The notes below the pieces were generated by a model. The model did no database searches. It was not told where the DNA came from and saw nothing but the letters and a program-made list of their open reading frames with translations. A stretch of 62,611 nucleotides of DNA from an uncultured Lentisphaeraceae bacterium (GTDB lineage: Bacteria; Verrucomicrobiota; Kiritimatiellia; RFP12; UBA1067), in assembly GCA_964557205.1 (NCBI GenBank), contig CAZKZI010000002.1, positions 1-62,611 on the forward strand. Direction: 5' to 3'. Shown piece by piece: positions 17,910 through 45,769 of the stretch. The position numbers were made by a program, and so were the translations under genes. Numbering within the stretch: position 1 is the first letter of the stretch; each line of letters opens with the position of its first letter.

Positions 17910-18066
17910 TATTATTAAATTACCAGTCCCTTTATATGAATTTTGACACTGCAGATGATGAAGAGAAGTTCACTGAGGGGATTCTTGCGGTTCCCGTGGT
18001 TGCATAGGCGACACGTTTATGACAAGCACTCCCCAATTCAGGATTTGAAAGGAAAGGCGGCTCGAC

Positions 18067-18447
18067 ATGAGTGAAGCTGCAGTGATTCCGGTGGAACGGA
18101 TTGAGAGGGCTATCTATCTGATACGCGGGCTCAAGGTTATGCTGGACGGGGATTTGGCCGCACTGTACGGTGTGGCTACCAAGCGGCTGAAGGAACAGGT
18201 GCGCCGAAACAGCGACCGGTTCCCGGACGACTTCATGTTTGTCCTTGATAGGCAAGAGTTTGCGACTTTGAGGTCGCAATTTGCGACCTCAAAGTCTGAA
18301 TCTCGCGGCGGTACGCAGTATCTTCCCATGGCCTTTACCGAACAGGGCGTGGCGATGCTCTCGACCGTGCTGAACAGCAAGCGCGACCTCGGCCCCCGGG
18401 GGGTGCTGACGGTGGAGGGGACGGGCGTCATAGGAGCTATTCGCTGA
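18067..18447 (+). CDS. ORF6N (KilA-N-related) domain protein, C-terminus probably truncated
   Basis: IERAIYLIRGLKVMLDGDLAALYGV.TKRLKEQVRRNSDRFPDDFMF.L...EF..LRSQFATSK...RGGTQYLPMAFTEQGVAMLSTVLNSKR is the ORF6N signature. The sequence after LNSKR does not continue as in family members. Confidence 0.7.
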   Translation: MSEAAVIPVERIERAIYLIRGLKVMLDGDLAALYGVATKRLKEQVRRNSDRFPDDFMFVLDRQEFATLRSQFATSKSESRGGTQYLPMAFTEQGVAMLSTVLNSKRDLGPRGVLTVEGTGVIGAIR

Positions 18448-18684
18448 AAAGTGTTTCCTCGTGTTGGTGTGGAAGTTGCAGCGTATTGTTTGTTACGGTG
18501 TTTTCAATTGACGAGTATCTCTGAAAGTAATGAATCTTTGGCATAAAGCTCCCCATTTAAAAATTTACCATCAATTTGGTTGCGGAAACTTGGAAATCAA
18601 CAACGCCAAGAAGAAGGGCCCATTCAATGCGATGCCGGGCGAATTTCGCACGGTTCTGTCATCACCGCAGCACTTGTAGAACTG

Positions 18685-18954
18685 TTAAGCACCGACACAC
18701 AGCGCCACGGCTTGAGCTATTTCGTCAAGTTGCACCGCTTCGATCCGGCCGAGATAACGGGCGAAGCGGCGAAGGGGAACGGATTTTACCTGAAAGGCAT
18801 CAGCAGCGGACTCCTTCGAAAGACCGTTTGTTCCAGAAGGTTTCAGGTTTACCATCCAAGGTGACTCCACATACTTGGGAGACCAATCAGTGACCGGTAC
18901 CACGATGCGGAGGGGGAGACGGCCGATGGCATCCAGACTGAGAATAACGGCCGG
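18685..18954 (-). pseudogene. PemK/MazF-like toxin remnant (N-terminus missing)
   Basis: The minus-strand frame reads PAVILSLDAIGRLPLRIVVPVTDW...GLSKESAADAFQVKSVPLRRF..YLGRIEAVQLDEIAQAV, which matches the MazF core. A TAG at 18955-18957 cuts off the N-terminal strand, and no antitoxin ORF lies upstream. Confidence 0.5.
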
Positions 18955-19297
18955 CTAGTCAACGACAATTATACTTCCCTACCAGCGACAATTATAATTC
19001 CCTCTTTTTGTGTGTTTTTATTAGGTGTGTTTTTCAGCCATCAGGCTGCCTGACATTGGGTTAATGGGCGGGGAGGATGATGGGGCGGGTGTACGTTCGA
19101 GAAATTTGTCGGGTGTGTTGCCGGCAACGAAGAGATCATGAAGTGGAAGGCCTTCCTTGAAAGGCGTTACTTTGTCAGTTCAGGGTCAAACCTAAATAAG
19201 AATTCCGTTACCGAATCACGGCGTGGAACGCTCTCTTTTTGTACCTACGGCATTTTATATTACACTTCTCGTACTTTTGAATTCCCGCCGACACCAG

Positions 19298-19326
19298 TTG
19301 ACATGTTTGGAAAAAGGGCTTATTCT
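19298..19326 (+). promoter_or_regulatory. candidate sigma70-type promoter for the HEPN/SecB-like module
   Basis: TTGACA (19298-19303), a 17-nt spacer, then TATTCT (19321-19326), about 60 nt upstream of ATG 19388. Confidence 0.3.
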
Positions 19327-19387
19327 TGTGATGTTTTGAGGGCACTTAGGTGTTTTGAGACCTGCAGACGGATATTGGTCTGTTGCC

Positions 19388-19744
19388 ATGAGTTATAAAA
19401 AACGCTCTGATGAATTTTGGGATGCCGCTGAACTATGTAATTCGAACGATTTGTATGCGGCGGCCGCCAGTCGATTTTACTATGGCCTCTTTTTGGCCGT
19501 GTGCGGTTTTTTTGTGACGAAGAAGGGGTTTGATCCGAATCCTTCAAATGTGCACAGTAGACTGTTGACGAAGCTGAAAGAAGAGGAGCCAGATGGCAAA
19601 CGGGATGCGCGAGTGTTTCGTGAGTTCAAAGATATCCGCGTTGATGCGGATTATGCGAAGGCAGAGGTTTACAAGATTGATCTGACTGAACGATCAAAAG
19701 CTGATGCGGTCCGGCAGAAGTATTTGAAGAAAATGGTGGGATGA
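19388..19744 (+). CDS. HEPN-like domain protein (putative toxin of a three-gene module)
   Basis: Lies within ORF 19355..19744, with ATG at 19388. The helical pattern is typical of HEPN proteins (DLYAAAASRFYYGLFLAVCGFFV...HSRLLTKL...FKDIRVDADYA). I do not see a clear R-x4-6-H RNase motif. Confidence 0.55.
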   Translation: MSYKKRSDEFWDAAELCNSNDLYAAAASRFYYGLFLAVCGFFVTKKGFDPNPSNVHSRLLTKLKEEEPDGKRDARVFREFKDIRVDADYAKAEVYKIDLTERSKADAVRQKYLKKMVG

Positions 19745-19748
19745 TTTT

Positions 19749-20270
19749 ATGGAACCGGAGAGACAAGAGGTTTTCAGTAGAGTCGAATGTGTGGCGCGTG
19801 AACGTTTCCCCGAGTATACTGTTGTTGCTGAGAGTGATCCGAGTGACAGTGGCTCGATCGGGGTTGGTGTTTATGGCGTGCCGCTGGCGGAGGTCAGTGC
19901 GGTTAGGAATATCATTTACGACTTGGAAGAGGAAATATTCCCTCGTGGAGAGTACTGCCTGTCTGCTTTTGTACGCGATGTCGAGTACACACGACAGTAT
20001 TGTTCGCAGTGCATGCCGGAGGCTAAGGCGTTGTCGATTGACATGGACGAACTCTGTTTGCAGCTGTCGCAGAAAGAGAGTTCCAAGTGGATGGACAGTA
20101 CGCCTATAAACGGGGTGGCTGCCTTGGGACGTTACGCTTCAGAGAAGATGGACGTTTCGATTGTGACTGACTTCTTGTCCTCGGATTGCAGAGATAAATG
20201 GTCTCCGAATGAAAGTTGTCCCTCGTCTGGGGTTCCTGTCGTCGAAAACAACTTTGATCGCGCCGCATAA
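19749..20270 (+). CDS. hypothetical protein (candidate antitoxin position in the TAC-like module)
   Basis: ATG 19749 lies 4 nt after the HEPN stop. It is followed after 8 nt (GAGG RBS) by the SecB-like gene. No recognisable domain. Confidence 0.5.
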   Translation: MEPERQEVFSRVECVARERFPEYTVVAESDPSDSGSIGVGVYGVPLAEVSAVRNIIYDLEEEIFPRGEYCLSAFVRDVEYTRQYCSQCMPEAKALSIDMDELCLQLSQKESSKWMDSTPINGVAALGRYASEKMDVSIVTDFLSSDCRDKWSPNESCPSSGVPVVENNFDRAA

Positions 20271-20278
20271 GAGGTTTT

Positions 20279-20743
20279 ATGGACAGCACGAAAGAGCCCG
20301 GTATCATTCTCGACAAAGTGGTGTTGCTCAAGTCTGACGTCGAGTATAAGCCAAATGTGAAAAGGGCCGATGAAGGAGGGCTTTCTTATTGTTTGGCACT
20401 GACTAAGTTCACCAGGAATGAAGCGGCAGAGGATACTGAACTGTGTGCCATAGTCGAGTTTGATCTGATGAACGGCATTGAAAACGCACCCATTGTTTTC
20501 AGAGCTACCTTCTATCTCGAATACAAGCGTCCAAAAGAGGCGTCGATGGCTTGGACAGAATTCAAGAACCCAATGGTGCTCGCGCATGCCATTCCGTATC
20601 TTCGCGAGTTTGTGACCAACATGACGGCCCGGATGCCTGTGCCTCCGCTCATCCTTGATCCGGTCAATACGATTTTGCTTTACAAGCGTTATCAGGCAAG
20701 CCAATCGCCCGCTCAGGCAGAAGCCGAAGCGAAGCCCTCCTAG
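20279..20743 (+). CDS. SecB-like chaperone
   Basis: AHAIPYLREFVTNMTARMPVPPLILDPVNTILLYKRY aligns with E. coli SecB [39 protein letters not shown]. The upstream beta-strand pattern is also collinear, and the tail is acidic and Ala-rich. Confidence 0.7.
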   Translation: MDSTKEPGIILDKVVLLKSDVEYKPNVKRADEGGLSYCLALTKFTRNEAAEDTELCAIVEFDLMNGIENAPIVFRATFYLEYKRPKEASMAWTEFKNPMVLAHAIPYLREFVTNMTARMPVPPLILDPVNTILLYKRYQASQSPAQAEAEAKPS

Positions 20744-21044
20744 CCCGTGGGATCGTGCAGAGGCAAATCTGGTTGCTTGTGTTTTTTCTCTGCGAACCAG
20801 TTGAGAAGCGACGTAGCGCAAGGTCGATGGCAACGGACGGTTCAGGAGGCAGCGCAGGCCCGCGGAGGCCGGCGCGTGACCGGTGTTGGTTGATCAGTTT
20901 GTCGGCGCACCCTGCGGCGTCGATCACCGTGAGCTTCGGGCTAAATCGGTGATCTTTGATTTGACCGGAAACACATTTTGGACGATTGGGACGTTTTCTC
21001 GTAAGTGTCTTTACTTTGACCTACTGGTTGCCAGTTGATAGCCG

Positions 21045-21053
21045 TGCTATAAT
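21045..21053 (+). promoter_or_regulatory. extended -10 element TGCTATAAT with no obvious downstream gene
   Basis: A perfect TGnTATAAT at 21045-21053. Downstream lie only a 15-codon ORF (MKKNTRKTDKSGRRQ) and repeat copy 21113..21153. Confidence 0.25.
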
Positions 21054-21112
21054 GGCGGCATGAAGAAAAACACGAGAAAAACCGACAAGTCGGGGCGCAG
21101 GCAATAGCCGGT

Positions 21113-21153
21113 TTGGAAGGCGTTTTCTTTCTTTGAGGGATCTGACGGCGGGG
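21113..21153. repeat. short interspersed motif, copy 2
   Basis: See 13655..13691. Confidence 0.7.
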
Positions 21154-21191
21154 ATGAGGCGGAGGTGTCCTTCTTCGTTATTATGAAGATG

Positions 21192-21665
21192 TCAGTTCGT
21201 AAGCGCCATGGCCTTGATCCGCTTTTCCAGTGCCTTCCAGTCGGGTTCGGGTTCTGAGAGCAAAATGTCTGTAATGTGAACGTGGGTATAGATGTTGCCT
21301 GATATAGGAGCACGGTACTGACTCCCCCTCCAGCGCTTCCAGGTCTTTGCCCGTTCCGGCGTATACAGTGCGGTTGTCCATATCTCGATCAGGCAGGTTT
21401 CCGGGCACAACACATAGATCCATTCGTTGGAAAGCGGATTAAAAAATGGATCAACTTGTTCTTTTGTGCCAAGACCGTGTTTATGCAAACGCGCTTCCGG
21501 GTCTGGATATGCTGTTCCTTTAAGAGCTTTTTCGATAAGCACCAGATCGATTGTTTGCGGTTGTCCCGCTACCTTGCCACAATAGGGGCAGACGCCACCA
21601 GAACGGACCTCCTGCCAATCACCGCAGGTTTTGAGGATTTCGACGAGATATGGGCAGCGTTTCAA
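21192..21665 (-). CDS. hypothetical protein with a Cys-x2-Cys ribbon-like element
   Basis: 157-aa ORF with a TTG start and a CPYCG motif. It is divergent from the McrB-like gene. No family recognised. Confidence 0.4.
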   Translation of the reverse strand: MKRCPYLVEILKTCGDWQEVRSGGVCPYCGKVAGQPQTIDLVLIEKALKGTAYPDPEARLHKHGLGTKEQVDPFFNPLSNEWIYVLCPETCLIEIWTTALYTPERAKTWKRWRGSQYRAPISGNIYTHVHITDILLSEPEPDWKALEKRIKAMALTN

Positions 21666-21683
21666 CAGGTTTGATGGACAATT

Positions 21684-21794
21684 TCAGATCAGCTCGACCA
21701 TTACGCGGTCGCCGTTGATCTCCCGTAGAACAATGCGGATGTTTTCCTCGCCCTTCTGCGGCTTGCTGTATATGACAATGTCGTTTGCTTTCAT
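21684..21794 (-). CDS. possible small ORF (36 aa)
   Basis: ATG 21794 gives MKANDIVIYSKPQKGEENIRIVLREINGDRVMVELI and stops at 21684-21686, 18 nt upstream of the TTG of the next ORF. It is below the ORF-track cutoff. Confidence 0.2.
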   Translation of the reverse strand: MKANDIVIYSKPQKGEENIRIVLREINGDRVMVELI

Positions 21795-21815
21795 GGTATT
21801 TCCATGCGAGCTAGC

Positions 21816-21845
21816 TTGCATAAGCAAATATTGTTAACGTATAAT
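21816..21845 (+). promoter_or_regulatory. candidate promoter for the McrB-like gene
   Basis: TTGCAT (21816-21821), an 18-nt spacer, then TATAAT (21840-21845), about 180 nt upstream of ATG 22025. Confidence 0.3.
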
Positions 21846-22024
21846 GAAATGCATTAACAAGTTCGAATGGGCTAAACCTTTTGCCCCTTTCCAGCACTTG
21901 ATAGTCGGCTAGTTGCATTGGGTAGGGTGACACAGTTAAAGAGCATTTATGAGCAACTCGTTTTCTTTGAGTATCTGTTGCGGAGCGGATTTTGCGGTCA
22001 CGTAAGTTTTATTAAAGGGATTCT

Positions 22025-24610
22025 ATGAGTATTCGTAATTGCATTGAAAGAGTTATAAATGATTGGCCCACTGAAAAGAGTAAGCCATTTAAAGGAAACG
22101 AGCTGGCCGAATTTATTCGTACAGTTTTTACCAATGAAGTCCGCGAAATCGTAGGTTCCATAAATCCAATGCTAAAGGTTAAAGCGAGTCCCGGCGCTGG
22201 AAATTGGGCGAGTGTTCCGTGGTTGGCCATTCTGGACCCGAAAATAACAGATTCTACTGAAGACGGCGTTTACCCCGTATATTTTTTCCGTGCTGACGGC
22301 ACAGGTGGCTATTTGTCTTTAGGTCAAGGTACGACAACTCCCACTAAGTTGTTGGGTAAAAAAAGGGCAAGAATACGCGCTCAGGTGATGGCCGCAGATT
22401 TGCGCAAACAAATTCCCTTGCTCAACAAATGGATAGAGGGAAAGACATATCTTCGCACAGAAACTAATCTTGGCGGATCATATGAAGACGCAAATATTGG
22501 GGCACGTTTGTACGAAAAAGGACAAGTTCCAAGCGAAGAAGTGCTTCGTGAGGATTTGGCGGATATATTATCCATATATCAGGAAGTAGTTAATATCTGG
22601 CCCTCAAAAGGACTTGTTAACACGCCACTGCAAAAAATGGTGAAGGCGTTTCGCCAAGACTTCCCCGACTTCAAAACCTTTGGGGATTGCGGACAAGATT
22701 TTCTGAAGAACGAAGACGGGTACAAGCGTAAAGCGGTTAGTCTATTCTCTGAATTATTCAATGATTGGCTGGATGGAGCCCCAGACAGTTTGGAAGCATC
22801 GGATTTTTCAGCCAAAATCCTTAAGATTTTCAGGAAGACTAATTTGCTCGACTGGCGTACCGTGGATAAAATCGACGGAAACATTTTAAAGTCGGCCAAA
22901 TTGCTACCTCAGTTCCAGACGCTGTGCCATAGTCTACTGGTCAAAGCCAGAAGCGGGAAGATGCTGGACAGCGAGTTGGAGTCTCTGGTCGGGTTTATGG
23001 TCCAGAAGGGGAAAGCGCCGCGTGCCGCAACCCAAATGATCCCCTCTTATCTGCTGATGCTCGCCAAGCCAACAAAATACATTTTCATCAAACCGACACT
23101 GGTTGACGCTTTCTTCCAGCGCTTGGGGCACGGTGATCTGCTGGGACAGCCTTGGCTAACCGCGGAGGCCTACGGTAAAGTGCTGGGGCTTTTTGTAAAT
23201 GTCCAATCACAGCTCGCGGAGCTTGGCCCGCGGGATATGATCGACCTGCAGTCCTTCTACTATGTTGTTGTGGGGTATGGACAAAAAGGGGCTGTTATGC
23301 TGCCTGAACCAGAAGGCTCAGTGGAGAAATCCGTGGACTACTCAAAAGTTTTTCCAGAAATCGTGCCGGCTTTTGCAACCGCGATATCTGAATCCGGGTT
23401 TTGCATTGGCAATAATCTGCCTTTGCGGTTCATCTCGTCGTTAACCGCGAAGCCGTATGTTGTTCTCACAGGAAATTCCGGTACTGGGAAAACCAAACTG
23501 GCGGAACTTTTTCCCCGATGGCTTAGCTGTGAAGCGAACGATCGGCTCGCCTTGGTTCCTGTTGGAGCTGACTGGACCGATAGCCGTAATGTCCTCGGTT
23601 TTGTAAACCACATTCGGTCTACCAAGCCTGTTGGAGAAACGGTCGATGTGCCGCTTTATCAGTCCACCGTTATCCTAGACTTGCTTCTCGCCGCTAGGAC
23701 TCAACCGTCCCAACCGTTTTTCCTGATTCTCGATGAGATGAATCTCTCCCACGTGGAGCGATATTTTGCGGATTTTTTAAGCACCATGGAATCAGCGAAG
23801 GGTGAGTTGCTGTTGCATTGCGAGGGCCGCTTGCTCCCTCGCAAATTGGGCGGGGCCGCCGATGTTCCGGAAGTTCTGCCGATGCCGCGCAATGTGTTCG
23901 TCGTCGGTACTGTGAATGTGGATGAGACAACTTACATGTTTAGTCCGAAAGTCTTGGACCGCGCGAACGTGATTGAATTTCGAATTACTAAGGATGAGGT
24001 TAATAAGTTTTTTGAGCAAGGCGGAGGTAATATTGGCGAGTTAGAGTCAGCGCCGGAGGGTACCGCAGAGGCGTTTTTGGAACTTTCTCTGCGTGCACGT
24101 GGTGTGCGGAGGGCTGACGATAGTGAGCGGGAGCCGCTGGCTGCCCCAGCCAAACTTGCTGAATGCCAAGAAAAGCTGAAAGAAGTTTTCGAAATCCTTT
24201 CAAACGCTCGGTTGGAATTTGGATACCGTACACTGAACGAGGTTTTACGTTATGCCCGAGTTGATTTTGAGTTAACAGAGGATAAAACGAAGTGGAAGTG
24301 GGAGGATTGCATGGACGCGCAGATCCTGCAGAAGATCTTGCCGAAACTTCATGGGAGCAAGCGCAGGATTGAAACTGTGCTTATCGAACTGGCTCGTTAC
24401 TGCGAAACGGGCCTTTTGCATGAGGAGAAGAGCGTTTACGCCTCAGACTTTATGGTTACGCCTAAAGTCAAAAGAGTCCCTAGACCAAAGAAAAGCGAAG
24501 GGGACACAATTCCAGGACCGGATACAGTTGTTTTCCGCGAGAGTTACGAGAAACTGTGCGACATGATCGATGCGGTCCGGCGTGACCAGTTTGTCAGCTT
24601 CATCCAATAA
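22025..24610 (+). CDS. McrB-family AAA+ NTPase with an N-terminal DUF3578 (MrcB_N-like) domain; type IV restriction specificity/motor subunit
   Basis: The N-terminus KVKASPGAGNWASVPWLAILDPKITDSTEDGVYPVYFFRADGTGGYLSLGQGTT is the DUF3578 signature. Walker A is LTGNSGTGKTKLA. Walker B region is FFLILDEMNLSHVERYFADFLSTME. VVGTVNVDETTYMFSPKVLDRANVIEF corresponds to the McrB GTMNTADRS...RRF region. Confidence 0.85.
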   Translation: MSIRNCIERVINDWPTEKSKPFKGNELAEFIRTVFTNEVREIVGSINPMLKVKASPGAGNWASVPWLAILDPKITDSTEDGVYPVYFFRADGTGGYLSLGQGTTTPTKLLGKKRARIRAQVMAADLRKQIPLLNKWIEGKTYLRTETNLGGSYEDANIGARLYEKGQVPSEEVLREDLADILSIYQEVVNIWPSKGLVNTPLQKMVKAFRQDFPDFKTFGDCGQDFLKNEDGYKRKAVSLFSELFNDWLDGAPDSLEASDFSAKILKIFRKTNLLDWRTVDKIDGNILKSAKLLPQFQTLCHSLLVKARSGKMLDSELESLVGFMVQKGKAPRAATQMIPSYLLMLAKPTKYIFIKPTLVDAFFQRLGHGDLLGQPWLTAEAYGKVLGLFVNVQSQLAELGPRDMIDLQSFYYVVVGYGQKGAVMLPEPEGSVEKSVDYSKVFPEIVPAFATAISESGFCIGNNLPLRFISSLTAKPYVVLTGNSGTGKTKLAELFPRWLSCEANDRLALVPVGADWTDSRNVLGFVNHIRSTKPVGETVDVPLYQSTVILDLLLAARTQPSQPFFLILDEMNLSHVERYFADFLSTMESAKGELLLHCEGRLLPRKLGGAADVPEVLPMPRNVFVVGTVNVDETTYMFSPKVLDRANVIEFRITKDEVNKFFEQGGGNIGELESAPEGTAEAFLELSLRARGVRRADDSEREPLAAPAKLAECQEKLKEVFEILSNARLEFGYRTLNEVLRYARVDFELTEDKTKWKWEDCMDAQILQKILPKLHGSKRRIETVLIELARYCETGLLHEEKSVYASDFMVTPKVKRVPRPKKSEGDTIPGPDTVVFRESYEKLCDMIDAVRRDQFVSFIQ

Positions 24611-24631
24611 TTCTGCCGAGCATGTTGTTGT

Positions 24632-25015
24632 ATGAGCGAACTTGGAACACCTCTGGCGGTCATCCGCGTGACATTGGACGGATGCGCTATCCGGATTTAT
24701 CCGGCTTCCGAAGACAACCCCGAGGTGCCTTTCGATTTCAAGGAGTTGCAGAGCGCGACTTGTTTGCTCGAGGGCCGCACGGCCAAAGGTGGTGATGTTC
24801 CATTCCGCTATGACCCAACAGCCTCGGCACGGGGACTACAGCCGCTTAGACTTTATGAGAACACCCGCTATTGCTGGGAGGTGGAGGGGATAGCTGAGAC
24901 CAATGGGCCGTTCAGCTCTTTGAAGTCACCCGGTCGCGCAGAATGGCATGTGCGGCGCCGTAAAGAGCGCATCGAGGGTGATTTCCGAGTTACCAACTAT
25001 CTGGGCACAGCTTAG
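24632..25015 (+). CDS. N-terminal fragment of a DUF2357/McrC-like protein (ends at an in-frame TAG)
   Basis: Ends ...GDFRVTNYLGTA-TAG. It is in the same frame as 25043..27037, and the intervening codons are open. Read through, the sequence gives the DUF2357-like F.v.NYvG.a......L.FEV.S.KLD.E.EY motif. Confidence 0.6.
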   Translation: MSELGTPLAVIRVTLDGCAIRIYPASEDNPEVPFDFKELQSATCLLEGRTAKGGDVPFRYDPTASARGLQPLRLYENTRYCWEVEGIAETNGPFSSLKSPGRAEWHVRRRKERIEGDFRVTNYLGTA

Positions 25016-25042
25016 ATTCGGCTGAAGCCGGATGGGGCAGCT

Positions 25043-27037
25043 TTGCACTTCGAGGTTCTTTCCAGAAAATTGGACTTTGAGGACGAGTACCGCTGGATGG
25101 TTCAGGCGCTGGCCGAAGAATGTCAACAGTTACTGCTGGAGTGGAACAGTCCCACCGCCTTTTCGATCCGCTCTGACGCAGACCATGACCGGCGATTGCT
25201 GCTGGAGCAGTTTCTGTTTCTCAGGCACTGCCTGCTCGGTAGCGACAAGCTCGACAGTTTTCTGGAGCAGATCAGGCGGCGACCGCATACGTTGCTCAGG
25301 CGTGAACAAATGTGGCAGCCATCAGCAATGGCGTATAGTCCTGCCTTTGTACGCGACCCGATCAGGTTCGGCCGGTCGTGGCGGGAGAACGGTGAAGGCG
25401 CATTCTTTCCAGAAGAGGTCTTGTCGGAGCGGAAATTCGAGACGCTCGACACACAGCCGAACCGGTTCATCAAGTTTGCTTTGCAGCAGTTTCAAGAGCT
25501 TTGCGATAACGTCCGATCCATGCTTAAGAAGGAGCAAGGAACCGCCTGGATGGAGGCGGGGCTGATGCAGGAGTCCTTGGACGCGTTTCTGCTGGATCCT
25601 TTCTTTGATGAAGTTGAGCCCTTGCATCGGATTCCGTTGGACAACGTGACGCTGCAGAAACGCGAGGGATACAGGGATATCCTGTTCACTTGGCTGATGT
25701 TGGAAGTGGCGGCGCAACTGGATTGGCCAGGGCGCGATGACGTATACGACGGGACAAACCGTGATGCGGCCACGCTATATGAATACTGGCTCTATTTCGT
25801 TTTGAGGAAGCAACTCTTGGAGAAGTCGGGCGATCACAGCCTAGCGATGGAGGAGTTGTCGGTCAATCGGGAGGTCGAATCCGGCGCGCTACCGTTCATA
25901 TGTCAGACCGATGCGGGCAATCTGGAGATCAACCTCAAAGAAGGATGCGCTTCTTTATCGAGGTTTATTTGGAAAGCAGATGACGGACGTTCCCTTTGTA
26001 TTCATCTATTCTATAACCGCACCTTTATCGGCCAGAAAGATCCACGAAAGCGCGGCTCTTACAGTCATTCTTTCCGGCCGGATTACACGCTAGTCATTCT
26101 GCCGGGCGAGTATGCAGCAGACCGATGGGATACGGCCGAAAATAAAGCCGAACAGGAGGGGCGGATCGCATACCTGCATTTCGACGCCAAATATCGAATC
26201 GAGAAGCTCGATGATCTGTTCGGTCTCGACAGCGATGATTTTCTGAGGGATGAAAACGTCGAAGTGAAAACACGGCAAACCTATAAGCGCGGCGATCTTT
26301 ATAAGATGCACACCTACAACGACGCGATCCGGCGGACGGCAGGCGCATACGTTTTCTATCCCGGGAATGCACAGGACAGCAACGAAGCGGCCAAGAGATT
26401 CGGCCGATTTGAAGAACTGGTCCCGGGTGTTGGGGCTTTCGCTGTGCGGCCTGGGAAGACTGGGCCGACGGGTGTTATTGCGGTGCGAAGTTTCATCAAG
26501 GACGTTCTGAAACATCATTTAAACTCATTCACCCGCGATTACCGCATCCGGTATTGGACTCACAGGACTATCTGTGAGACGCCCGCTATGCAAGCAGACA
26601 ATGATCATGGGGAACACCGACAAGCCCCAGCCGGTGACATTGCGGTGGTCGTTGCTTGGGCACGGTCTGAAGCCGTTGCGGAATTGTGGAGGGAGAAGAA
26701 GTTCTTTTATGTCCATGCGCTTAAGGCGACTCAGCGACAGCAAGATGTCCCTGAAGGGCTTTTGAGCGCAGACAAAGTTTTACCTCACTGTGACGGCAAG
26801 TGGCTGTTATGGACAGCGAAAATTGAACGCTGGGAGTTGGTGGAGAGGCGGCAACTCATCGATGCTTGGTTGGGGGGCGATGAGAGCCTGCTGGGCAGCG
26901 ATACGAGCTACTACTATGTGGCTTCGCTGAAGCAGTCCGAGAGCATTGAAGGACTCCCGATCGTGCGGACACCTAGGCGGGGGTACGACGTGGTACCGTG
27001 GTCCAAGCTTTTTGTGGCGGGGGCGGATGAAGGATGA
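25043..27037 (+). CDS. DUF2357-type McrC-like protein with a PD-(D/E)xK nuclease domain (C-terminal 664 aa)
   Basis: The ORF-track start is TTG 25043. HFEVLSRKLDFEDEYRWMV and DTQPNRFIKFAL are the McrC/DUF2357 ENR-type motif. The nuclease motif is FRPDYTLVIL ... YLHFDAKYR ... DLYKMHTYNDAI. Confidence 0.75.
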   Translation: MHFEVLSRKLDFEDEYRWMVQALAEECQQLLLEWNSPTAFSIRSDADHDRRLLLEQFLFLRHCLLGSDKLDSFLEQIRRRPHTLLRREQMWQPSAMAYSPAFVRDPIRFGRSWRENGEGAFFPEEVLSERKFETLDTQPNRFIKFALQQFQELCDNVRSMLKKEQGTAWMEAGLMQESLDAFLLDPFFDEVEPLHRIPLDNVTLQKREGYRDILFTWLMLEVAAQLDWPGRDDVYDGTNRDAATLYEYWLYFVLRKQLLEKSGDHSLAMEELSVNREVESGALPFICQTDAGNLEINLKEGCASLSRFIWKADDGRSLCIHLFYNRTFIGQKDPRKRGSYSHSFRPDYTLVILPGEYAADRWDTAENKAEQEGRIAYLHFDAKYRIEKLDDLFGLDSDDFLRDENVEVKTRQTYKRGDLYKMHTYNDAIRRTAGAYVFYPGNAQDSNEAAKRFGRFEELVPGVGAFAVRPGKTGPTGVIAVRSFIKDVLKHHLNSFTRDYRIRYWTHRTICETPAMQADNDHGEHRQAPAGDIAVVVAWARSEAVAELWREKKFFYVHALKATQRQQDVPEGLLSADKVLPHCDGKWLLWTAKIERWELVERRQLIDAWLGGDESLLGSDTSYYYVASLKQSESIEGLPIVRTPRRGYDVVPWSKLFVAGADEG

Positions 27038-27386: not shown

Positions 27387-28067
27387 TCAGGGCTCCGGTG
27401 GCGGTTTGAAGCCGTTGAGCGTTTCGATCAGCGTGTAGACGGTTGTGCAGGGGTTGGCGCGTGAAGGTGGCGTTTGGAACGCGACGACATCATTATGGAG
27501 GCGCTTAGCCCAAGCAATCGCCTGGGCCTGCTTGCCGGTTTGCGAAAGGACTTGATACATGTCCACGGCGTTCTTCGCGTAAGGCCGGTCCATCAGGTCC
27601 GTGAGTTTGTCTTGATACTCGGTGCGGGGCATGGCGGTGATGCGGTACTCGAAATGGAGCACGTACCAGAGTTCGAAAGCCTCGTTCGACCAGGCGGCCT
27701 TCATGCCCTGATTCTCGGCTTTCAAAATGGCGTTGTCGAAATTAGCGGGCGGGAAGCTGTCGCGGTCAAAGACGACCCAGACCTGGTCGAACGGATAATC
27801 ACTGTCGGCCCGCTCGTCACGCAGCGCCTGCGCTTTCTCGACCAGCCGCAAGGTGTTGTCGCCCTCGCCGCTGATTTCCACTTCAATGACATGCAGGGGC
27901 AATTCGGCTTTGATAGCCTTGAAGTAATTGGGCTCGGTCTTCTCGCCCTCGCAGACGATCAAGAGACGCTGCCGCTCAGCCAAAGCGTCGACTTGTCGTT
28001 TGAGGCTTTTTTGGCTGCGAAGGTGCCACGGCGTGTTGCGGTCGCTAATCTTGACGGGTTTCCCCAT
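27387..28067 (-). CDS. RloB-like (Toprim-related) protein
   Basis: LLIVCEGEKTEPNYFKAIK ... FDQVWVVFDRDSF ... AWSNEAFELWYVLHF is the RloB family signature. The start overlaps the upstream ATPase gene by 23 nt. Confidence 0.85.
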   Translation of the reverse strand: MGKPVKISDRNTPWHLRSQKSLKRQVDALAERQRLLIVCEGEKTEPNYFKAIKAELPLHVIEVEISGEGDNTLRLVEKAQALRDERADSDYPFDQVWVVFDRDSFPPANFDNAILKAENQGMKAAWSNEAFELWYVLHFEYRITAMPRTEYQDKLTDLMDRPYAKNAVDMYQVLSQTGKQAQAIAWAKRLHNDVVAFQTPPSRANPCTTVYTLIETLNGFKPPPEP

Positions 28068-29355
28068 GATCCGTCTCCTTCAAGAGGGTTTCGAAGTGGC
28101 CCAGATAGGGGATCGCGCCGTAGCGGCCGCGGATGTAATTGGCGGCAAGATCCGCATCATTGCGCACCTTGGAGCCGTCCGGGAGTTTGAACTCGGCCAA
28201 CGAATAGAGCGTCGTGGCGGCGAGGCGGTCCTTTTCCGTGAACCAGATCTGGTCGCGGCGCAGCTTGCCCTTTTCGAGCAGCATCGTGTCGTGCGTGACA
28301 AAGATCAACTGCGCGCCCTTGGGATTCGTCACGGTGGAGTTGAACATTCCGACGATGGCCTTGGTCAGTAGCGGGTGCAACTTGGCGTCCAACTCGTCGA
28401 TAGCCACCACGTAACCGTTGTCGAGGCAATCTAGAAGCGGGGCGGCCATGCGCAGGAACTTCTTAGTGCCTTCTGACTCTCGCTCGTTAAATGGAAAAGG
28501 TATGAGGATGTCCGGTTCACCGTCACGAAACCGTTGATGGATCGCTGAAATCTTCAGAGACGTTTGGTTGCGCAATTTGTTCTGCATTTCCGGGGTAAAG
28601 AACTTGAGATATCCTTCGTCGGCAGAAGTTGGCGCTTCATTGACGCTGAGTTCTGAGATTCCGACATCCGCGTTTCTGACAAAACGCACAAGTTGATCAT
28701 GCTTTGTCACGTCTTGGATGCAACGAGCGGTATAGGCGTCAAACATTTGATCGTTCAGTCCGTGGATCGTCCGGAAGTCGTTAAACCACTTGAGGATGTG
28801 ACCGGCAGTCTCGCCGTTGAACTGCGCGACGACCGAGAGGAAGAGGGCGTTATCGCGGGTCTTATCCTCCAGTCCGGAGCCCTCCTTGAACGTTTTGCGG
28901 ACGTCGATGCCGTCGTCCTCGCGCAGGAAGAGGGTGGTCTCTTTGGTCTTTTCCGTGCGGAGCAGCCATTCCTTGCGGACGGCCTTGCTGTCGGCCTCGA
29001 AACCATAGCGGTAACGCGCGCCGTTCTGGATAAGCGTGATCTCGAAGCGGCTCGGGGCGTTTTCGGTGGCGGTGTCCAGCAGGAAAGGCTTGACGGGTAT
29101 ATCATCCTCGACCTGAGTTTCCTTGGACGAGGAGAGTACGAAGCGCCGCATGAAGACCATGGCGGCGATCAGGTTCGACTTGCCGCTTGCGTTGGCGCCA
29201 TAGATGGCGGCGCTTTTTAGCAGGCGGGTATCGTCGGAGCCGGCCTCGAAGGTGTTATCATCGAGCTGCTCCTTGTAGGCGTTCACGGCGACCATGCTGA
29301 GCCGCACGGGGTCCTTGAACGAAAGATAGTTGCCGACTTCGAAATCGATCAACAT
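28045..29355 (-). CDS. AAA_15/AAA_21-type ABC-like ATPase (RloA/OLD-N-terminal-like)
   Basis: MLIDFEVGNYLSFKD..., Walker A IYGANASGKSNLI, the C-terminal VVAIDELDAKLHP (Walker B/D-loop) and QLIFVTHDT (H-loop). Confidence 0.85.
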   Translation of the reverse strand: MLIDFEVGNYLSFKDPVRLSMVAVNAYKEQLDDNTFEAGSDDTRLLKSAAIYGANASGKSNLIAAMVFMRRFVLSSSKETQVEDDIPVKPFLLDTATENAPSRFEITLIQNGARYRYGFEADSKAVRKEWLLRTEKTKETTLFLREDDGIDVRKTFKEGSGLEDKTRDNALFLSVVAQFNGETAGHILKWFNDFRTIHGLNDQMFDAYTARCIQDVTKHDQLVRFVRNADVGISELSVNEAPTSADEGYLKFFTPEMQNKLRNQTSLKISAIHQRFRDGEPDILIPFPFNERESEGTKKFLRMAAPLLDCLDNGYVVAIDELDAKLHPLLTKAIVGMFNSTVTNPKGAQLIFVTHDTMLLEKGKLRRDQIWFTEKDRLAATTLYSLAEFKLPDGSKVRNDADLAANYIRGRYGAIPYLGHFETLLKETDHGETRQD

Positions 29356-36137: not shown

Positions 36138-38204
36138 TCACCGATCGAGACTGGAGAGAAACTCGGAAATGGGCGTTATGCCTGTGATCAACAGGAAGTC
36201 CCGGGCGCGGGTGGCAGCCACATAGAGCATCTGACGCTCCATCGCCATGATGTCATTCGCATCAGCTTCGCGCATGGCGCAATCCAGCCGCGTTTGGAGC
36301 GGCACCCACATGGCATCGCACGCCATTACCGCAACTGCTTTGAACTCAAGTCCTTCCGCATAGGGCATGGTCGCCATCGCGATTTTTCCCTCTTCATCCG
36401 GGTTTCCTTGGTCTAACAGAACATAGTCTTGCTTTACCAAGGTCACAACCTCTTCGGCACGCGGTAGCAATTCATGGGTGCGCACGAAAATGCAGCACTC
36501 TTGCGGCTTGACCCCTGCCTCAAAAACCTGTTCCAGCCATTGGGCAACCCCGAACTGCTCTTCTTCCTTTGTCATGTACTGTCGGATCGAGGGCGATAAC
36601 CCCGAGAATATTGAGATGGCCTGGCGCCGATCTTCAATGACTCCATCCGCATCCTGAAATTGCTTTGAGACAAAACGATCAGCCAGCATCCGTATCTGAT
36701 GCGAGGTACGGTAGTTGACCTTAAGAATGTGCGAGCGGCCGACAATGTTAATCCCAGCCGATTGCCACGAGACCAGTGGTTGCCGAATCCGCTGTCCTAA
36801 ATCACCTACAAAGAAGAGCGATTGCGGCGTTTTGCGCATGGCGTTAAGCAACACAAGGTGCTCGTGCCGTAAATCCTGGCATTCGTCAGTAATAATGTAA
36901 TCGAATGGATTCTGCAACCTTCCGTCAGCAAGCATCATAGTCACGGTACGAACTTGACGAAAAGGGGGCGTCAGTCCGCGTGCTGCCAGAAGCTTAGTCG
37001 CCCGCTCAACAATTCGCCAGATCTCATGCCGCTGAACCCGACTCAACCGCACAAGTCGTCCTTGTCGCGCTAGCGCGGCATAGGACTCCGGGTTGTCAAC
37101 TCCGGCTACTTCGATCACCTGACTCCACTCGTCAAAGAGGAAGTCTTCCGAATAGTTGTTTAAATCCAAATCGATCCGGGCTTCCTTAAGCGTCTTGCGT
37201 ACCTCCCGCTCATCTGCTGCTGGCGCGGTTGTCGCTTTTCCGTCCAGAAGCAGTTCCGGCAGTGTATCAATTGCCACAACAGTGATGTGTTCAAAAACAG
37301 TTGAATCATCTCCGACTAATCGCTGCACCAGCGAGGCAAGAGATGCGGCCAGTGCCCGGGAGATCGTTGTCAACAGGATTCGTGCTGTGGGCGCTTGACG
37401 TGCCAGGTGCACCGCCCGGTGTAAAGCCACCACCGTCTTGCCAGTTCCCGGACCGCCGCAGATACGCGCATCGCCGTCATCCTCTGCTTCGACCCACTTA
37501 CGCTGTTCGGGGTGAAGGAAGATGCGCCAATCATCCCAGGGCATGGACAAGGCGGCTTGCAGTGCATTCGGCGAATCAATAGCGTAAAAACGGCGGGCTG
37601 CATCGGGTGCGAGAAACGGATTGGTTGTCGCCACTGGCCACCGCGTCACTCGCGGTGTACCGCCGCTCGCCAGTGTCAGCAGGGCTTCGACAGCTTCCTC
37701 CGGCAAATATTCGATAAAGTCCAACAATTCTTTTTCCGAGCGAACACCACGCACATCGTTCACCCACTGATCCGGAATTCCCAGCCAGGCAAATTCGGTT
37801 CGCGGTAGATTGGCGAACAGGGGACGGCGCTGATCGCGTACGGGTGTGGGTCTGGCACGCATTTCTGACTTCACCAGTTCACGCAGAACAACCATCTGCA
37901 TTGCGCCGGTCGTGGGATTGGCAGCAAACTTCCGTTTCTGCGCCCAGGCATAAGCCTGATCGTGGTGGTCGGCATAGCAGAAGAGGGTGCCGTGCTCTGA
38001 GTCATGCAGAATGAGCCGGATGTCCCGCGTACTTCGCAACGACCAGAAGCCAGGATCGCGGCAGCGGTCGAGCCGGTGTTTGCGCAACCCCGGATGGGCG
38101 GGGTTCGCCTGATACATCTCCGCCGCCTCGACCGCGCTCTCTCGCTCAGCGGCCTGCAGTCGCGTCAGACTCTCAGTAAAACTCTTGGCAATGAACAATC
38201 CCAT
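36138..38204 (-). CDS. UvrD/Rep-type SF1 helicase with an N-terminal RelE/ParE-like domain (operon gene 7)
   Basis: Walker A GGPGTGKTVVALHRA, motif II FDYIITDECQDL, motif III FFVGDLGQRI, NYRTSHQI, and motif VI LYVAATRARDFLLITG. The N-terminal ~95 aa (NPAHPGLRKHRLDRCRDPGFWSLRSTRDIRLILHDSEHGTLFCYADHHDQAY) follow the RelE/ParE pattern. Confidence 0.85.
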   Translation of the reverse strand: MGLFIAKSFTESLTRLQAAERESAVEAAEMYQANPAHPGLRKHRLDRCRDPGFWSLRSTRDIRLILHDSEHGTLFCYADHHDQAYAWAQKRKFAANPTTGAMQMVVLRELVKSEMRARPTPVRDQRRPLFANLPRTEFAWLGIPDQWVNDVRGVRSEKELLDFIEYLPEEAVEALLTLASGGTPRVTRWPVATTNPFLAPDAARRFYAIDSPNALQAALSMPWDDWRIFLHPEQRKWVEAEDDGDARICGGPGTGKTVVALHRAVHLARQAPTARILLTTISRALAASLASLVQRLVGDDSTVFEHITVVAIDTLPELLLDGKATTAPAADEREVRKTLKEARIDLDLNNYSEDFLFDEWSQVIEVAGVDNPESYAALARQGRLVRLSRVQRHEIWRIVERATKLLAARGLTPPFRQVRTVTMMLADGRLQNPFDYIITDECQDLRHEHLVLLNAMRKTPQSLFFVGDLGQRIRQPLVSWQSAGINIVGRSHILKVNYRTSHQIRMLADRFVSKQFQDADGVIEDRRQAISIFSGLSPSIRQYMTKEEEQFGVAQWLEQVFEAGVKPQECCIFVRTHELLPRAEEVVTLVKQDYVLLDQGNPDEEGKIAMATMPYAEGLEFKAVAVMACDAMWVPLQTRLDCAMREADANDIMAMERQMLYVAATRARDFLLITGITPISEFLSSLDR

Positions 38205-38210
38205 GACCGC

Positions 38211-40703
38211 CTACTGCATGGTTCCGATCGCTGAACCCAGTTCCCGATCTTCAATTGTGTCCGTTTTGCGGATAAACCGCGCCACATAATCGGAAAAGCA
38301 GCCTCCTACCTGATTCATGTTAGCAACCATGGTTGGAGGAAAACATACATTAGCAAGCTGTCCGTCAAAGTTAATTAGCCGCAACAATCTTTCCCGCAAG
38401 GGATCATCTTTATTGGCAAGAAAGTCCGGATGCGTTTCACGTACGCTAAGAGCAAAGAGGATAGAAAACAACACGTCCTTCCGTGGCACATCAGCAAAGC
38501 CATTAAGATTGAAGTTTGGCAAATAATTTATCAAAGCGTTCAAATAGCATTGCACAAGTTCAAGATTTATTGTGATTCCAGTATGCCAGCAGAGCATCCT
38601 AAAGAGTGACCAACACAACATTTTCGCTTGCTGTGGATCACTAAAATGTGCGTTTTCGCAATAGTTTACGAGTAATTGAAGATCATCAGGATGATCACCA
38701 AGAACAAAACCAGGGCCATGTGCCTCGGAGTAAGACGGGAATGGTGCGTTAATTCGCAGAAGTGAGCGAATATGATTCTTGTAAGCTTGCGATGCATGTC
38801 CGTGACAGTAGTTGTTCTGCTTACTCCAATTATTACGAAGCTGCATACCAGCAGGTATGTTTCCGTTTTGCCAAAGATGATTCGAGAGAATCTCTGCCAA
38901 CTCGGATATTTCCCTGTCTGGTAACACACGCGTGCCAAACAGACCGCGGGTAGGTTGACTTGGGTGAGCACGCCACCCCCAGCGATCAAGAGCGCTAAAA
39001 GGAAAAATTGGTGCGCAGTGAACCGGGGGAGAATCAACACGATATTGCTGAACAGCATTTTGCAAAGCAGCAATTTGATCTTCTTCCCCATTACAGTATC
39101 TGACCAACAAACTGAGCATTTCCAGATTTGCTGGATCATCATAGATGCGTCCAATTACAGGTTGAGCTTCAAGATAGCCTTTGTGCTCAGGCTCGGGCTT
39201 CGTCTCTCTGCCTTGTGCGTGATCGTCTGGATCAAGGGCATAGGTAAGTATGACGGAGTTTTTTCCCTGTTTTCCGTCCGAAACAAAAGGTCGCGAATCA
39301 TCAGCCGCAGTGACAGTAAACCTGGCGTTTCCCCTTGCTGCTTCTACCGTTGCATCAAGACGCAGAGGCAGTTCTTGTGGCAATGGCGTAAAAAGGTCCA
39401 CCTGAAGCCGACGTGCGTAGTCGTAGTCTGGATCATCACAAGGAAGCCGCCGAACGAGCATGGAAAAGCGATCTCGATGACGGTTGATGCAGAAGGCATT
39501 GTGTATGGCGTCATCATTTAATGTCCACGGGATTCCTGGTTCAACCTCCTGATTGGGAGCAACAAGCTGCCTGCCGCCTTGGCTGGTCCAGATTCTGTAC
39601 TCCGGCAACGTATCGTAGTAGGTCGGTTGATTTTCCGCCCGCCGCTCGGCGAAAAGCCGCGATCCTTCAGCTACCGCTGCAAGCGGTAACACCCGGATAT
39701 TCCGTCCAGGCCATACGCCCTCAAGCATCGCTTTCAACCCGTCCGCATCAAGATGCGTGAGCCATCCGTAAACAAGAATGGTGTCGCCTTGCGCAAGATT
39801 AAAATCCTGATGCGTAAGGACGTTCTGCAAGCCATGCCACGTGTGCGGTAATGCGTCAGGCTTTGTTACATGGACCTTTTGCCAACGTATTCCTGCACAG
39901 ACCCAGATATCAAATGCGCGCGCTTCGGATTCCAACTGCTCCTGCACCTCGGGCGCGGTCTGGCAACATCTTAACTGGTCGCGCTCAGGGATATTGGAAA
40001 ACAACTCACTCCAGGCGCCATTCAGAGCCGTGTAATTAAGGTTTCTCCGACGCTCAATGTCTGTCGCGCAGGTGCGAACTGGCGCAATCCAGGCGTTGTC
40101 GCGCTGATGGCGTCGCCAGGTTAGTCGCGTAAACTCCAGCCCTGCCGAGTCGAGGTCCAGTACCCAGACCGCGCCGGTGCCCTTTGTATTGGCAAAGACT
40201 TCTTCCCCATCGCCAGCGGTTAGCCAATACAGCATGGCGGCCACGGGCCGCCAAAGCAACGATACATCGGAATGGATGCCGCTCAAGGCGCGCAGCAACG
40301 CATCCTGCGCGTCTTCGTTCAACCGGTTGGGGATTACAAAGGCGAGTTTTCCCTGCTCGTTTCTTAATGTAGGCAAATGTGCTTTAAGAGCATCAGCTAC
40401 CAATGATGCGCTTTGCCAGACATTTTTCCTCTGCGTCAAATCGCGCCAGATTGCCTCAATCGAAAGCAGGTTGGCTGTGAAAACAGTAGCGGCGTTATTT
40501 CCCTGTACGATATTGAACTCTCTGTTACATACCTGTGGACGAAAGTTTTTGGGACTGCCCCACGTTATGCGCTCGTCATGATCCTTTGCACCAGCGGCAT
40601 CGGCATAGGGTGGGCAACCGAGGAGAACGTGTCGTGTATTGACAGCTTCTTGTTCTATCTGCCACCGCAGGGCTCGCCCAGAGAGATCAATGCCGACACT
40701 CAT
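38211..40703 (-). CDS. large protein with an N-terminal degenerate Hsp70/actin-fold (ASKHA) ATPase domain (operon gene 6)
   Basis: Collinear matches to DnaK NBD motifs are visible. VGIDLSG matches [28 protein letters not shown] matches [33 protein letters not shown] matches [28 protein letters not shown] matches [26 protein letters not shown] matches [26 protein letters not shown] matches PDEAVAIGAAVQG. The C-terminal ~480 aa are unassigned. Confidence 0.6.
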   Translation of the reverse strand: [830 protein letters not shown]

Positions 40704-42373: not shown

Positions 42374-42376
42374 AAA

Positions 42377-44050: not shown

Positions 44051-44055
44051 TCGGG

Positions 44056-44475
44056 CTATTTCAGTTTTTCGGCTTGTGCTATCAATTCCTGGATTTTATC
44101 ATTTAGATTTTGAAGCTCCCTTTGCTTGGTATTGATCTCGGCCACCAGATTGGCAAGTATTTTTTCCAATGCCTCCCGTTCCCCATCTAATCTTGGCTTC
44201 TCATATTCAAGCCAATCCTCGGCCTCTTTTTTTCTCCTTAAAATCTCTGTAACCTTTGTATATTCGTCGTTCAAATTTTCAAGCTGTTTGCTCAACAACG
44301 TAGCTTTTTCAGCATTTTCAATTTGATTTTTTAAGGCAGTCAACTCTTTGTCAGCGTTACTGCGCAATAGCGCAACTTGTTCTTCGAGATCGCGTTTTTC
44401 GCGGGCTTTGCTGATATAGATGACGATTGCCAGAACAGCAGATGCCAGATAGGCGATAATTAGATGATTTTCCAT
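44056..44475 (-). CDS. small membrane-anchored coiled-coil protein (operon gene 3)
   Basis: An N-terminal hydrophobic helix (LIIAYLASAVLAIVIYI) is followed by KAREKR and ~110 aa of E/K/L/Q-rich coiled-coil sequence. It shares LKNQIE(N/Q)A with the gene 4 N-terminus. Confidence 0.65.
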   Translation of the reverse strand: MENHLIIAYLASAVLAIVIYISKAREKRDLEEQVALLRSNADKELTALKNQIENAEKATLLSKQLENLNDEYTKVTEILRRKKEAEDWLEYEKPRLDGEREALEKILANLVAEINTKQRELQNLNDKIQELIAQAEKLK

Positions 44476-44499
44476 AATGATGTTCCTGTTAGTTTGAGA

Positions 44500-45768: not shown

Positions 45769-45769
45769 G

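Follow-up and report, generated by a model that had tools for sequence, protein, structure and literature searches.

Toxin, antitoxin, and chaperone genes follow one another in this order in the HigB1–HigA1–SecB(TA) system of Mycobacterium tuberculosis and in CmdTAC (PMC5105189, PMC9519451), an anti-phage system of Escherichia coli also listed as PD-T4-9. SecB-like chaperones have been linked to the toxin–antitoxin (TA) pairs HigBA, MqsRA, and HicAB (PMC5105189) and to CmdTA (PMC9519451, PMC11618068). In M. tuberculosis HigA1, the chaperone-addiction (ChAD) region holds both the SecB(TA)-binding site and a Val–Ala ClpX degron (PMC8165232). In the absence of CmdC, or after its capture by the capsid protein of phage T4, ClpP degrades CmdA (PMC11618068). 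The terminal Ala–Ala of CmdA is required for ClpXP-dependent CmdTA toxicity, and ChAD recognition relies on aromatic residues (Mets et al. preprint). Both this Ala–Ala and the Val–Ala of HigA1 are ClpX degrons demonstrated by experiment, and both are located within the ChAD. A ChAD degron is not universal among toxin–antitoxin–chaperone (TAC) systems, as the HigA of E. coli NT1F31 is without one. Recent work has shown that TAC systems sense phages, their SecB-like chaperone serving as the readout for nascent structural proteins of the phage. Here, we describe a three-gene module at positions 19298–20743 of a 62,611-nt contig (CAZKZI010000002.1) of an uncultured Lentisphaeraceae bacterium; this whole stretch is referred to as the window. 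The module encodes a HEPN-domain protein (ORF1), a member of an unnamed protein family (ORF2), and a SecB-like protein (ORF3). It is probably a TAC system with a HEPN toxin, in its logic as well as in its architecture.

The three genes lie on the plus strand. ORF1, the putative toxin (19388–19744, 118 aa from an ATG), ORF2, the putative antitoxin (19749–20270, 173 aa), and ORF3, the SecB(TA)-type chaperone candidate (20279–20743, 154 aa), are separated by 4 nt (19745–19748) and 8 nt (20271–20278), as described in the sequence-only reading from which this analysis started. Shine–Dalgarno-like sequences (GGTGGGA and AAGAGG) sit within the 3′-terminal parts of the preceding genes. The mechanical open reading frame of ORF1 begins with a TTG at 19355; the ATG at 19388 was taken as the start because the start of the homologue on the metagenome contig L001 aligns there and the DNA around the ATG is conserved. 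The same reading had placed a TTGACA–17–TATTCT promoter in front of the genes. Such a sigma-70-like element is present at 19298–19326 on the plus strand (10/12 consensus match), although a consensus scan is by itself non-significant (three sites seen versus 2.2 expected). The comparison with the L001 and L003 contigs is more informative: DNA homology with their module (62–81% identical) sets in precisely at the −35 hexamer and extends across the conserved 5′ untranslated region (UTR, 19327–19387), and the sequences upstream of the hexamer are unrelated between the window and these contigs. The promoter therefore marks the left edge of a mobile unit and the left boundary of the conserved module.

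The sequence-only reading had made its TAC interpretation hinge on the three genes being conserved together elsewhere, and they are. The neighborhoods of about a dozen of the ~90 ORF2-family clusters were surveyed, mostly on short metagenomic contigs, and the order HEPN, ORF2 family, SecB-like was kept in 10 of the 10 loci with readable flanks. The stop and start codons of the triad usually overlap or abut, and ORF2 identity across the loci falls to ~25%. These sequence-verified, independent loci comprise the window itself, from a lake water metagenome, where the triad stands in a defense island; L001, which together with L002 and L003 represents JGI and Logan metagenome contigs (69, 62, and 81% identity for the HEPN, ORF2, and SecB-like proteins) whose neighbors differ from those of the window; a Kiritimatiellota metagenome-assembled genome (L009); a bin of an uncultured bacterium (L010); two ENA metagenome assemblies, in which the triad adjoins a type I restriction–modification-like methylase and helicase (L011) or lies beside a phage tape-measure gene (L013); the NCBI assembly GCA_036681025.1, beside IS66 (L014); an IMG/VR viral contig, whose ORF2-family tail ends in ALVA (L016); a JGI metagenome contig, among DUF3987/DUF932 mobile-element genes (L017); and a Logan assembly, where the triad adjoins an integrase (L018). 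In addition, an ORF2-like and SecB-like pair was found on two edge-truncated contigs (L007 and L008) and, beside a methylase, a ResIII helicase, and a holin, in one further locus (no DNA). The database protein P0032 is an in-frame HEPN–ORF2 fusion ending in AANEELALAA; being a lone case, it counts as weak evidence only. The locus search with a 15-sequence ORF2 alignment gave only two genome loci and none in viral contigs, and the SecB-like profile gave one viral contig. The HEPN gene was mis-called in some relatives, with an over-extended start in L013 (5468–5944) and a gene missed by the gene finder in L011 (5635–6000), and automated surveys would therefore under-count the triad.

ORF3 alone matches SecB only over residues 105–150 (Pfam, 20.4 bits against a cut-off of 26; phmmer against SecB in the Protein Data Bank [PDB], E = 0.011). 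This is the C-terminal helix region in which an alignment with SecB had been noted before. A profile of six family members matched the SecB of Haemophilus influenzae (PDB ID: 1fx3) with E = 9e-6, and hhalign with a nine-member alignment against E. coli SecB gave a probability of 88%, residues 104–145 of 154 being colinear with 106–147 of 155. ORF3 also aligned with Rv1957 (SecB(TA)) over residues 46–129 (E = 0.026). Its best match in the defense libraries was PADLOC PD-T4-9_C, i.e., CmdC (residues 56–137, E = 1.4e-4), and the family member of L010 aligned to positions 32–137 of the 141 in Pfam SecB. Against the NCBIfam SecB equivalogs, ORF3 scored 12–23 bits, whereas the cut-offs are 103–277 bits (best score 22.9 against 180; TIGR00809, 20.9 against 102.8), a shortfall of 80–260 bits. 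Judged by these scores, ORF3 would be a SecB homologue distinct from housekeeping SecB. It resembles the latter in its homologous, colinear C-terminal helix region and in length (~154 versus 155 aa) but falls far below the equivalog cut-offs, belongs to a three-gene module that is mobile, and is not linked to sec genes. Together with CmdC as the best match and the travel of the gene with the module between unrelated neighborhoods, the equivalog scores bear out the earlier view of a dedicated, non-housekeeping SecB. They also bear on the possibility of a chance juxtaposition, in which ORF3 is the housekeeping SecB and ORF1 and ORF2 are unrelated neighbors. Some room is left for it in that the secB content was judged from the window alone. 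It is effectively refuted by synteny, as the three genes travel together between unrelated neighborhoods in the 10 loci, and the low-G+C island, the short spacers, and a single RNA contig over ORF1 and ORF2 also speak against it; we consider its probability negligible.

ORF2 has no match in Pfam, NCBIfam, PADLOC, or PHROGs. The statement of the sequence-only reading that it has no recognizable domain thus holds for the family libraries, but a wider unnamed family to which it belongs had been overlooked. A word-indexed protein search returned one or two ORF2 relatives (one of them 62% identical) and four ORF3 relatives. When 1.8 billion cluster representatives were searched exhaustively with a profile, 82 ORF2-family proteins were found at E < 1e-3, all of which match over residues ~3–95 and most of which are 130–190 aa long. 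The family is unnamed, comprises ~90 sequence clusters, and is absent from the four libraries above; among 54 members, no Pfam family was found except in one fusion protein, which matched HEPN. It is almost wholly metagenomic, coming from lake water, Kiritimatiellota, and further uncultured lineages, and annotation pipelines therefore currently call all three genes hypothetical. In an AlphaFold model built with a 91-sequence alignment, residues 1–90 (19749–20018), the putative toxin-neutralizing part of the antitoxin, had predicted local distance difference test (pLDDT) values of 92–98, and the remainder had values of 52–60. This model supersedes earlier single- and two-sequence models (pLDDT 54), which gave no usable fold match. 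The modeled N-terminal domain has an α–β–β–α–β–α topology, and a Foldseek search of the model against the PDB gave nothing at E < 0.02. No function was drawn from loose Foldseek matches to α/β sandwiches (BolA, KH(uS3), and CDF-CTD-like), and a hydrogenase (NuoC-like) subunit found with the ORF2 profile among PDB sequences was rejected as non-significant (E = 0.43). As modeled, the N-terminal domain appears to be a new fold without a structural or sequence relative in the PDB.

The C-terminal half of ORF2 has an SsrA-like end that the sequence-only reading, which recorded a long tail, had missed. Residues ~100–173 are modeled as disordered (pLDDT 52–60, as above). The linker, a putative ChAD region (20019–20234), contains the aromatic residues W114, F142, and W151, which are kept, as is F169, in the 62%-identical homologue. 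Across the family, the linker itself is variable; tail length has a median of 74 aa and the number of aromatics a median of six, and 66 of 77 members have a Trp. The last residues of ORF2 (PVVENNFDRAA-COOH, 20235–20270 with the stop codon) are a diverged copy of a family consensus. The terminal residues are Ala–Ala in 80 of 94 members and Leu–Ala–Ala in 52 of 94, the 14 exceptions to the former being mostly short, possibly truncated sequences. Over the last 11 positions, the logo reads [V/A]-A-A-N-[E/T/D]-E-L-A-L-A-A, in short AANxELALAA. The tag added by E. coli tmRNA is AANDENYALAA, whose terminal LAA with the free carboxylate serves as the ClpX determinant, and the family consensus thus nearly copies the SsrA tag. 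In the window and close relatives, the tail has diverged to NNFD[R/Q]AA, with the terminal Ala–Ala, the Asn, and the aromatic positions retained. The combination of a predicted folded N-terminal domain, an aromatic-rich tail modeled as disordered, and an Ala–Ala ClpX-type degron corresponds to the anatomy of a TAC antitoxin. The earlier TAC interpretation is thus supported from three sides, by synteny, by the non-housekeeping nature of ORF3, and by this antitoxin anatomy.

ORF1 scored 34.8 bits against the Pfam HEPN family PF05168, above the curated cut-off of 22, confirming the HEPN-like pattern that had been recognized in its helices, and its relatives scored 17–31 bits. HEPN domains are established toxins, and those of PF05168 are classically paired with minimal nucleotidyltransferases (MNTs) (Anantharaman et al.). 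ORF1 was aligned with seven homologues, all from other triads (26–69% identical); the residues A26, A27, R29, Y31, Y32, A37, H56, R84, A87, D88, Y89, and R109 are invariant. The canonical Rx4-6H endoRNase motif is absent, in agreement with the earlier remark that none was obvious: R84 is followed by V-D-A-D-Y89, with no His within four to six residues. The motif of the family is instead R-x2-A-D-Y (R84-x3-D-Y89), with H56 on its N-terminal side (codons of H56, R84, and Y89 at 19553–19555, 19637–19639, and 19652–19654, respectively). In HEPN-T proteins of PF05168, an Asp stands in place of the His, and a second, strongly conserved His precedes the motif, which has been suggested as a possible alternative active site (Anantharaman et al. 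2013). On sequence grounds, the invariant H56, R84, and D88–Y89 of ORF1 fit this alternative site, a variant that the sequence-only reading had not considered. The closest solved structure, PDB ID: 9xbd (family profile, E = 5e-4), is annotated only as a "HEPN domain-containing protein" and shares the sR-YY, HS, and R-x4-Y elements with the ORF1 family. Its sister entry 9xbc differs by a Tyr-to-Phe change in the R-N-R-S-D-Y motif, which aligns with R84–Y89 of ORF1, and this tyrosine thus appears to be under study by others; a literature search on the code 9XBD found no paper.

The absence of Rx4-6H also feeds an alternative in which the module is TAC-like but its HEPN protein is non-catalytic, being RNA-binding or regulatory and toxic only by sequestration or not at all, or in which it serves a stress response or the addiction of a mobile element instead of phage defense. 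HEPN domains without the motif may act non-catalytically (Anantharaman et al.), the M. tuberculosis TAC was first described as stress-responsive (PMC5105189), and relatives of the module are found on integrative elements. On the other side, the invariance of H56, R84, D88, Y89, and R109 even across homologues of ~26–34% identity speaks for an active site that has been conserved, HEPNs that lack the motif are reported to be toxic all the same (Anantharaman et al. 2013), and the window as well as several relatives lie in defense islands. We regard this alternative as unlikely. Because the canonical motif is absent, catalysis by ORF1 is not assured.

A derived type VII HEPN–MNT system was also considered, in which ORF2 would be a highly diverged MNT that AMPylates Tyr89 of the HEPN protein and SecB would be an add-on. 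In its favor are the classical pairing of PF05168 with MNTs and the alignment of Y89 with the tyrosine that has a deposited Phe variant in the closest solved HEPN. However, the ORF2-family alignments contain no G[GS]x9-13Dx[DE] motif, the modeled topology is that given above with no nucleotidyltransferase among the Foldseek matches, and none of the 54 members examined matches Pfam NTP_transf. The gene order differs as well: HEPN–MNT systems usually have the MNT gene first, whereas the HEPN gene comes first here. On motifs, topology, and fold search, ORF2 was rejected as a diverged MNT, and a derived HEPN–MNT system is highly unlikely. The favored TAC assignment shares with type VII only the toxin domain superfamily, including the sR-YY, HS, and R-x4-Y motifs of 9xbd; it has no nucleotidyltransferase partner, and neutralization would presumably be by binding (type II-like) under chaperone control.

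All three genes are under purifying selection. The ratios of nonsynonymous to synonymous substitution rates (dN/dS) between the window and L001, for which synonymous sites are near saturation, are 0.10 for the HEPN gene, 0.18 for ORF2, and 0.15 for the SecB-like gene; within ORF2, they are 0.07 for the N-terminal domain and 0.37 for the tail. The strong conservation of an N-terminal domain of unknown function would also suit different or reversed roles, with this domain as the effector, the HEPN protein as a regulator or sensor, and the degron tail limiting the dosage of the effector, and the CmdTAC "antitoxin" is also needed for folding of its toxin (PMC11618068). We find such a reversal most improbable, given that the carrier of the ChAD and degron is the antitoxin in every characterized TAC, that HEPN domains are established toxins, and that the N-terminal domain of ORF2 is small and has no recognizable catalytic motif.

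Assembled contigs of four lake-water metatranscriptomes, a crude measure of expression, match 19370–20048 and 20379–20586 of the window, three of them without any difference and one with a single-base difference. The first begins at 19370, and a single contig crosses the junction of ORF1 and ORF2. No contigs matched the flanks at 18000–19360 or 21000–22500. The matches show that transcription of the module takes place in situ, probably from the promoter at 19298–19326. Comparison of the 5′ UTR with positions ~1160–1223 of L001 shows conserved pieces, such as CACTTA, GTG-TTT-AGAC, and GGTCTG-TGCC before the ATG. This 5′ UTR may act as a leader with a regulatory function; neither an operator nor an inverted repeat was detected at the promoter or in the 5′ UTR. 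Downstream, ~450 nt (20744–21191) separate ORF3 from a convergent gene. Within this gap, 20815–20965 is matched by one metatranscriptome contig (run X9), and no convincing terminator was seen after ORF3; the RNA might stem from a long 3′ UTR or from a small transcript of its own. A 233-aa antisense ORF at 20132–20833 on the minus strand is probably spurious, a by-product of plus-strand coding, because it lies opposite the conserved frames of ORF2 and ORF3.

Here, we propose a mechanism for the module as a HEPN-type TAC system. ORF1 would be a HEPN-T-type toxin, most likely a metal-independent RNase that uses a site formed by H56 and R84…D88–Y89. The ~90-aa N-terminal domain of ORF2 may bind the HEPN protein and thereby neutralize it, and the ~80-aa disordered, aromatic-rich tail would be the chaperone-addiction element, ending in the SsrA-like ClpX degron. 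As suggested by this anatomy and by the precedents of HigA1 and CmdA, an ORF3 tetramer of the SecB type would bind the tail, so that the antitoxin stays soluble and its degron hidden. When ORF3 is titrated away, the tail would become exposed and ClpXP would destroy ORF2. In CmdTAC and HigBAC, nascent phage structural proteins (capsid or tail) compete for the chaperone and titrate it, and such proteins may be the trigger here as well. The freed HEPN protein would then shut down the cell in an abortive infection. Abortive phage defense is probably the role of the module, being the likeliest one in view of its defense-island and prophage contexts. The toxicity and RNase activity of ORF1, the ORF1–ORF2 and ORF2–ORF3 binding, the ClpXP dependence, and the phage trigger are what we infer from these comparisons, and our confidence in the RNase chemistry and the phage trigger is lower than that in the TAC architecture and logic.

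Several observations weigh against this proposal, besides the missing Rx4-6H motif. The SecB similarity of the window protein is significant only over its C-terminal ~45 residues, and every ORF3-family member tested falls below the Pfam SecB gathering score. At positions −3 and −4, the tail of the window protein differs from the LALAA consensus, which makes its affinity for ClpX uncertain. The interaction between ORF1 and ORF2 rests only on synteny and on P0032, possibly an artifact of assembly or gene calling. In addition, no DNA-binding domain or operator for autoregulation was found in the module.

The closest described system in overall organization is the M. tuberculosis TAC (Rv1955–1957), with which the module shares the gene order, a dedicated SecB homologue, and an antitoxin whose C-terminal disordered ChAD contains aromatic residues and a terminal aliphatic ClpX degron (PMC5105189, PMC8165232). 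Its toxin, in contrast, is an RNase of the RelE/HigB fold and its antitoxin a HigA protein, whereas the toxin candidate here is a HEPN protein and the modeled antitoxin core is a new α/β domain without a helix-turn-helix; the degron there is just Val–Ala, whereas a near-complete SsrA-like decapeptide is found across the family here. CmdTAC is related through CmdC, the best defense-library match of ORF3, and is similar in its small antitoxin, which has no known antitoxin domain and a long unstructured C terminus ending in Ala–Ala, and in its defense and mobile context (PMC9519451, PMC11618068, Mets et al. preprint). CmdT, however, is an mRNA ADP-ribosyltransferase, and the core of CmdA is a helical pair, unlike the 90-aa α/β domain of ORF2; sequence comparison revealed no similarity of CmdT to ORF1 or of CmdA to ORF2. 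MqsRAC and HicABC illustrate that ChAD and SecB(TA) work as a module that different TA pairs have acquired (PMC5105189), but their toxins and antitoxins belong to other families, and the antitoxins can be recognized as homologues of MqsA or HicB and have DNA-binding domains. A HEPN-type TAC is a natural rather than a shocking extension, given that ChAD and SecB modules are known to pass from one TA family to another.

The module differs from the known TACs in toxin superfamily, antitoxin fold, and the near-complete SsrA mimic. Targeted full-text literature searches found no paper on a HEPN toxin with a SecB-like chaperone. A more specific proposal is that the triads form a distinct "HEPN-TAC" clade, with this module as its founding example, that combines two parts without an earlier link to chaperone addiction, a non-canonical HEPN-T toxin (R-x4-Y with an upstream His) and a new antitoxin fold, with a hard-wired near-full-length SsrA tag (AANxELALAA) and a SecB-like shield against the proteolysis that follows tmRNA tagging (by ClpXP, possibly with SspB-type adaptors), such that chaperone competition induced by infection leads to immediate destruction of the antitoxin. 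This proposal is tentative, and we rate its chances as slightly short of even. Most interesting in the module are its new antitoxin family and the SsrA tag that is hard-wired into that family. A HEPN-based type would be the fifth beside HigBA, MqsRA, HicAB, and CmdTA, the families linked to such chaperones in the papers found. If the assignment is correct, chaperone addiction would extend to the largest RNase toxin superfamily of defense systems, and a new antitoxin domain family of ~90 sequence clusters would be added. The module would also offer a clean natural case of an SsrA-mimicking degron with its protecting chaperone, a possible portable switch for chaperone-gated degradation, and a test bed for the nuclease activity of HEPN-T proteins without Rx4-6H.

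The module lies within a 17–30 kb stretch of lower G+C content (0.44–0.59 versus ~0.62–0.66 upstream). Upstream of it are a gene for an ORF6N-domain protein (18067–18447, plus strand; PADLOC candidate defense family PDC-S05, E ~ 1e-42) and, just before the promoter, a remnant of a PemK/MazF toxin (18685–18903, minus strand), a 72-aa ORF that covers only positions 41–107 of the 109 in the profile; it is truncated, and no antitoxin is visible. Between the module and a McrB-like gene lies a 157-aa Cys-containing ORF with a CPYCGK motif (21192–21665, minus strand), which has no match in Pfam, PADLOC, or PHROGs. A McrBC-like pair follows (22025–27037, plus strand), consisting of an 861-aa protein with MrcB_N and AAA domains (PADLOC PDC-M26A) and a 664-aa protein with DUF2357 and PD-(D/E)XK (PDDEXK_7) domains, and then an AbiL-type pair (27387–29355, minus strand), in which the gene for a 226-aa RloB/AbiLii protein overlaps that for a 436-aa AAA_21/AbiLi ATPase (PADLOC E = 6e-100). 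In the window, no Rfam families and no tRNA or tmRNA genes were found. A second block of lower G+C content (0.47–0.57), at 36138–46396, contains six co-oriented genes on the minus strand. They encode a UvrD-like helicase, an 830-aa unknown protein, a DUF2357 (McrC-like) protein, two unknown proteins of 557 and 425 aa, and a REase_MTES_1575/DUF559 protein, and this block may be another multi-gene defense system with several unannotated parts.

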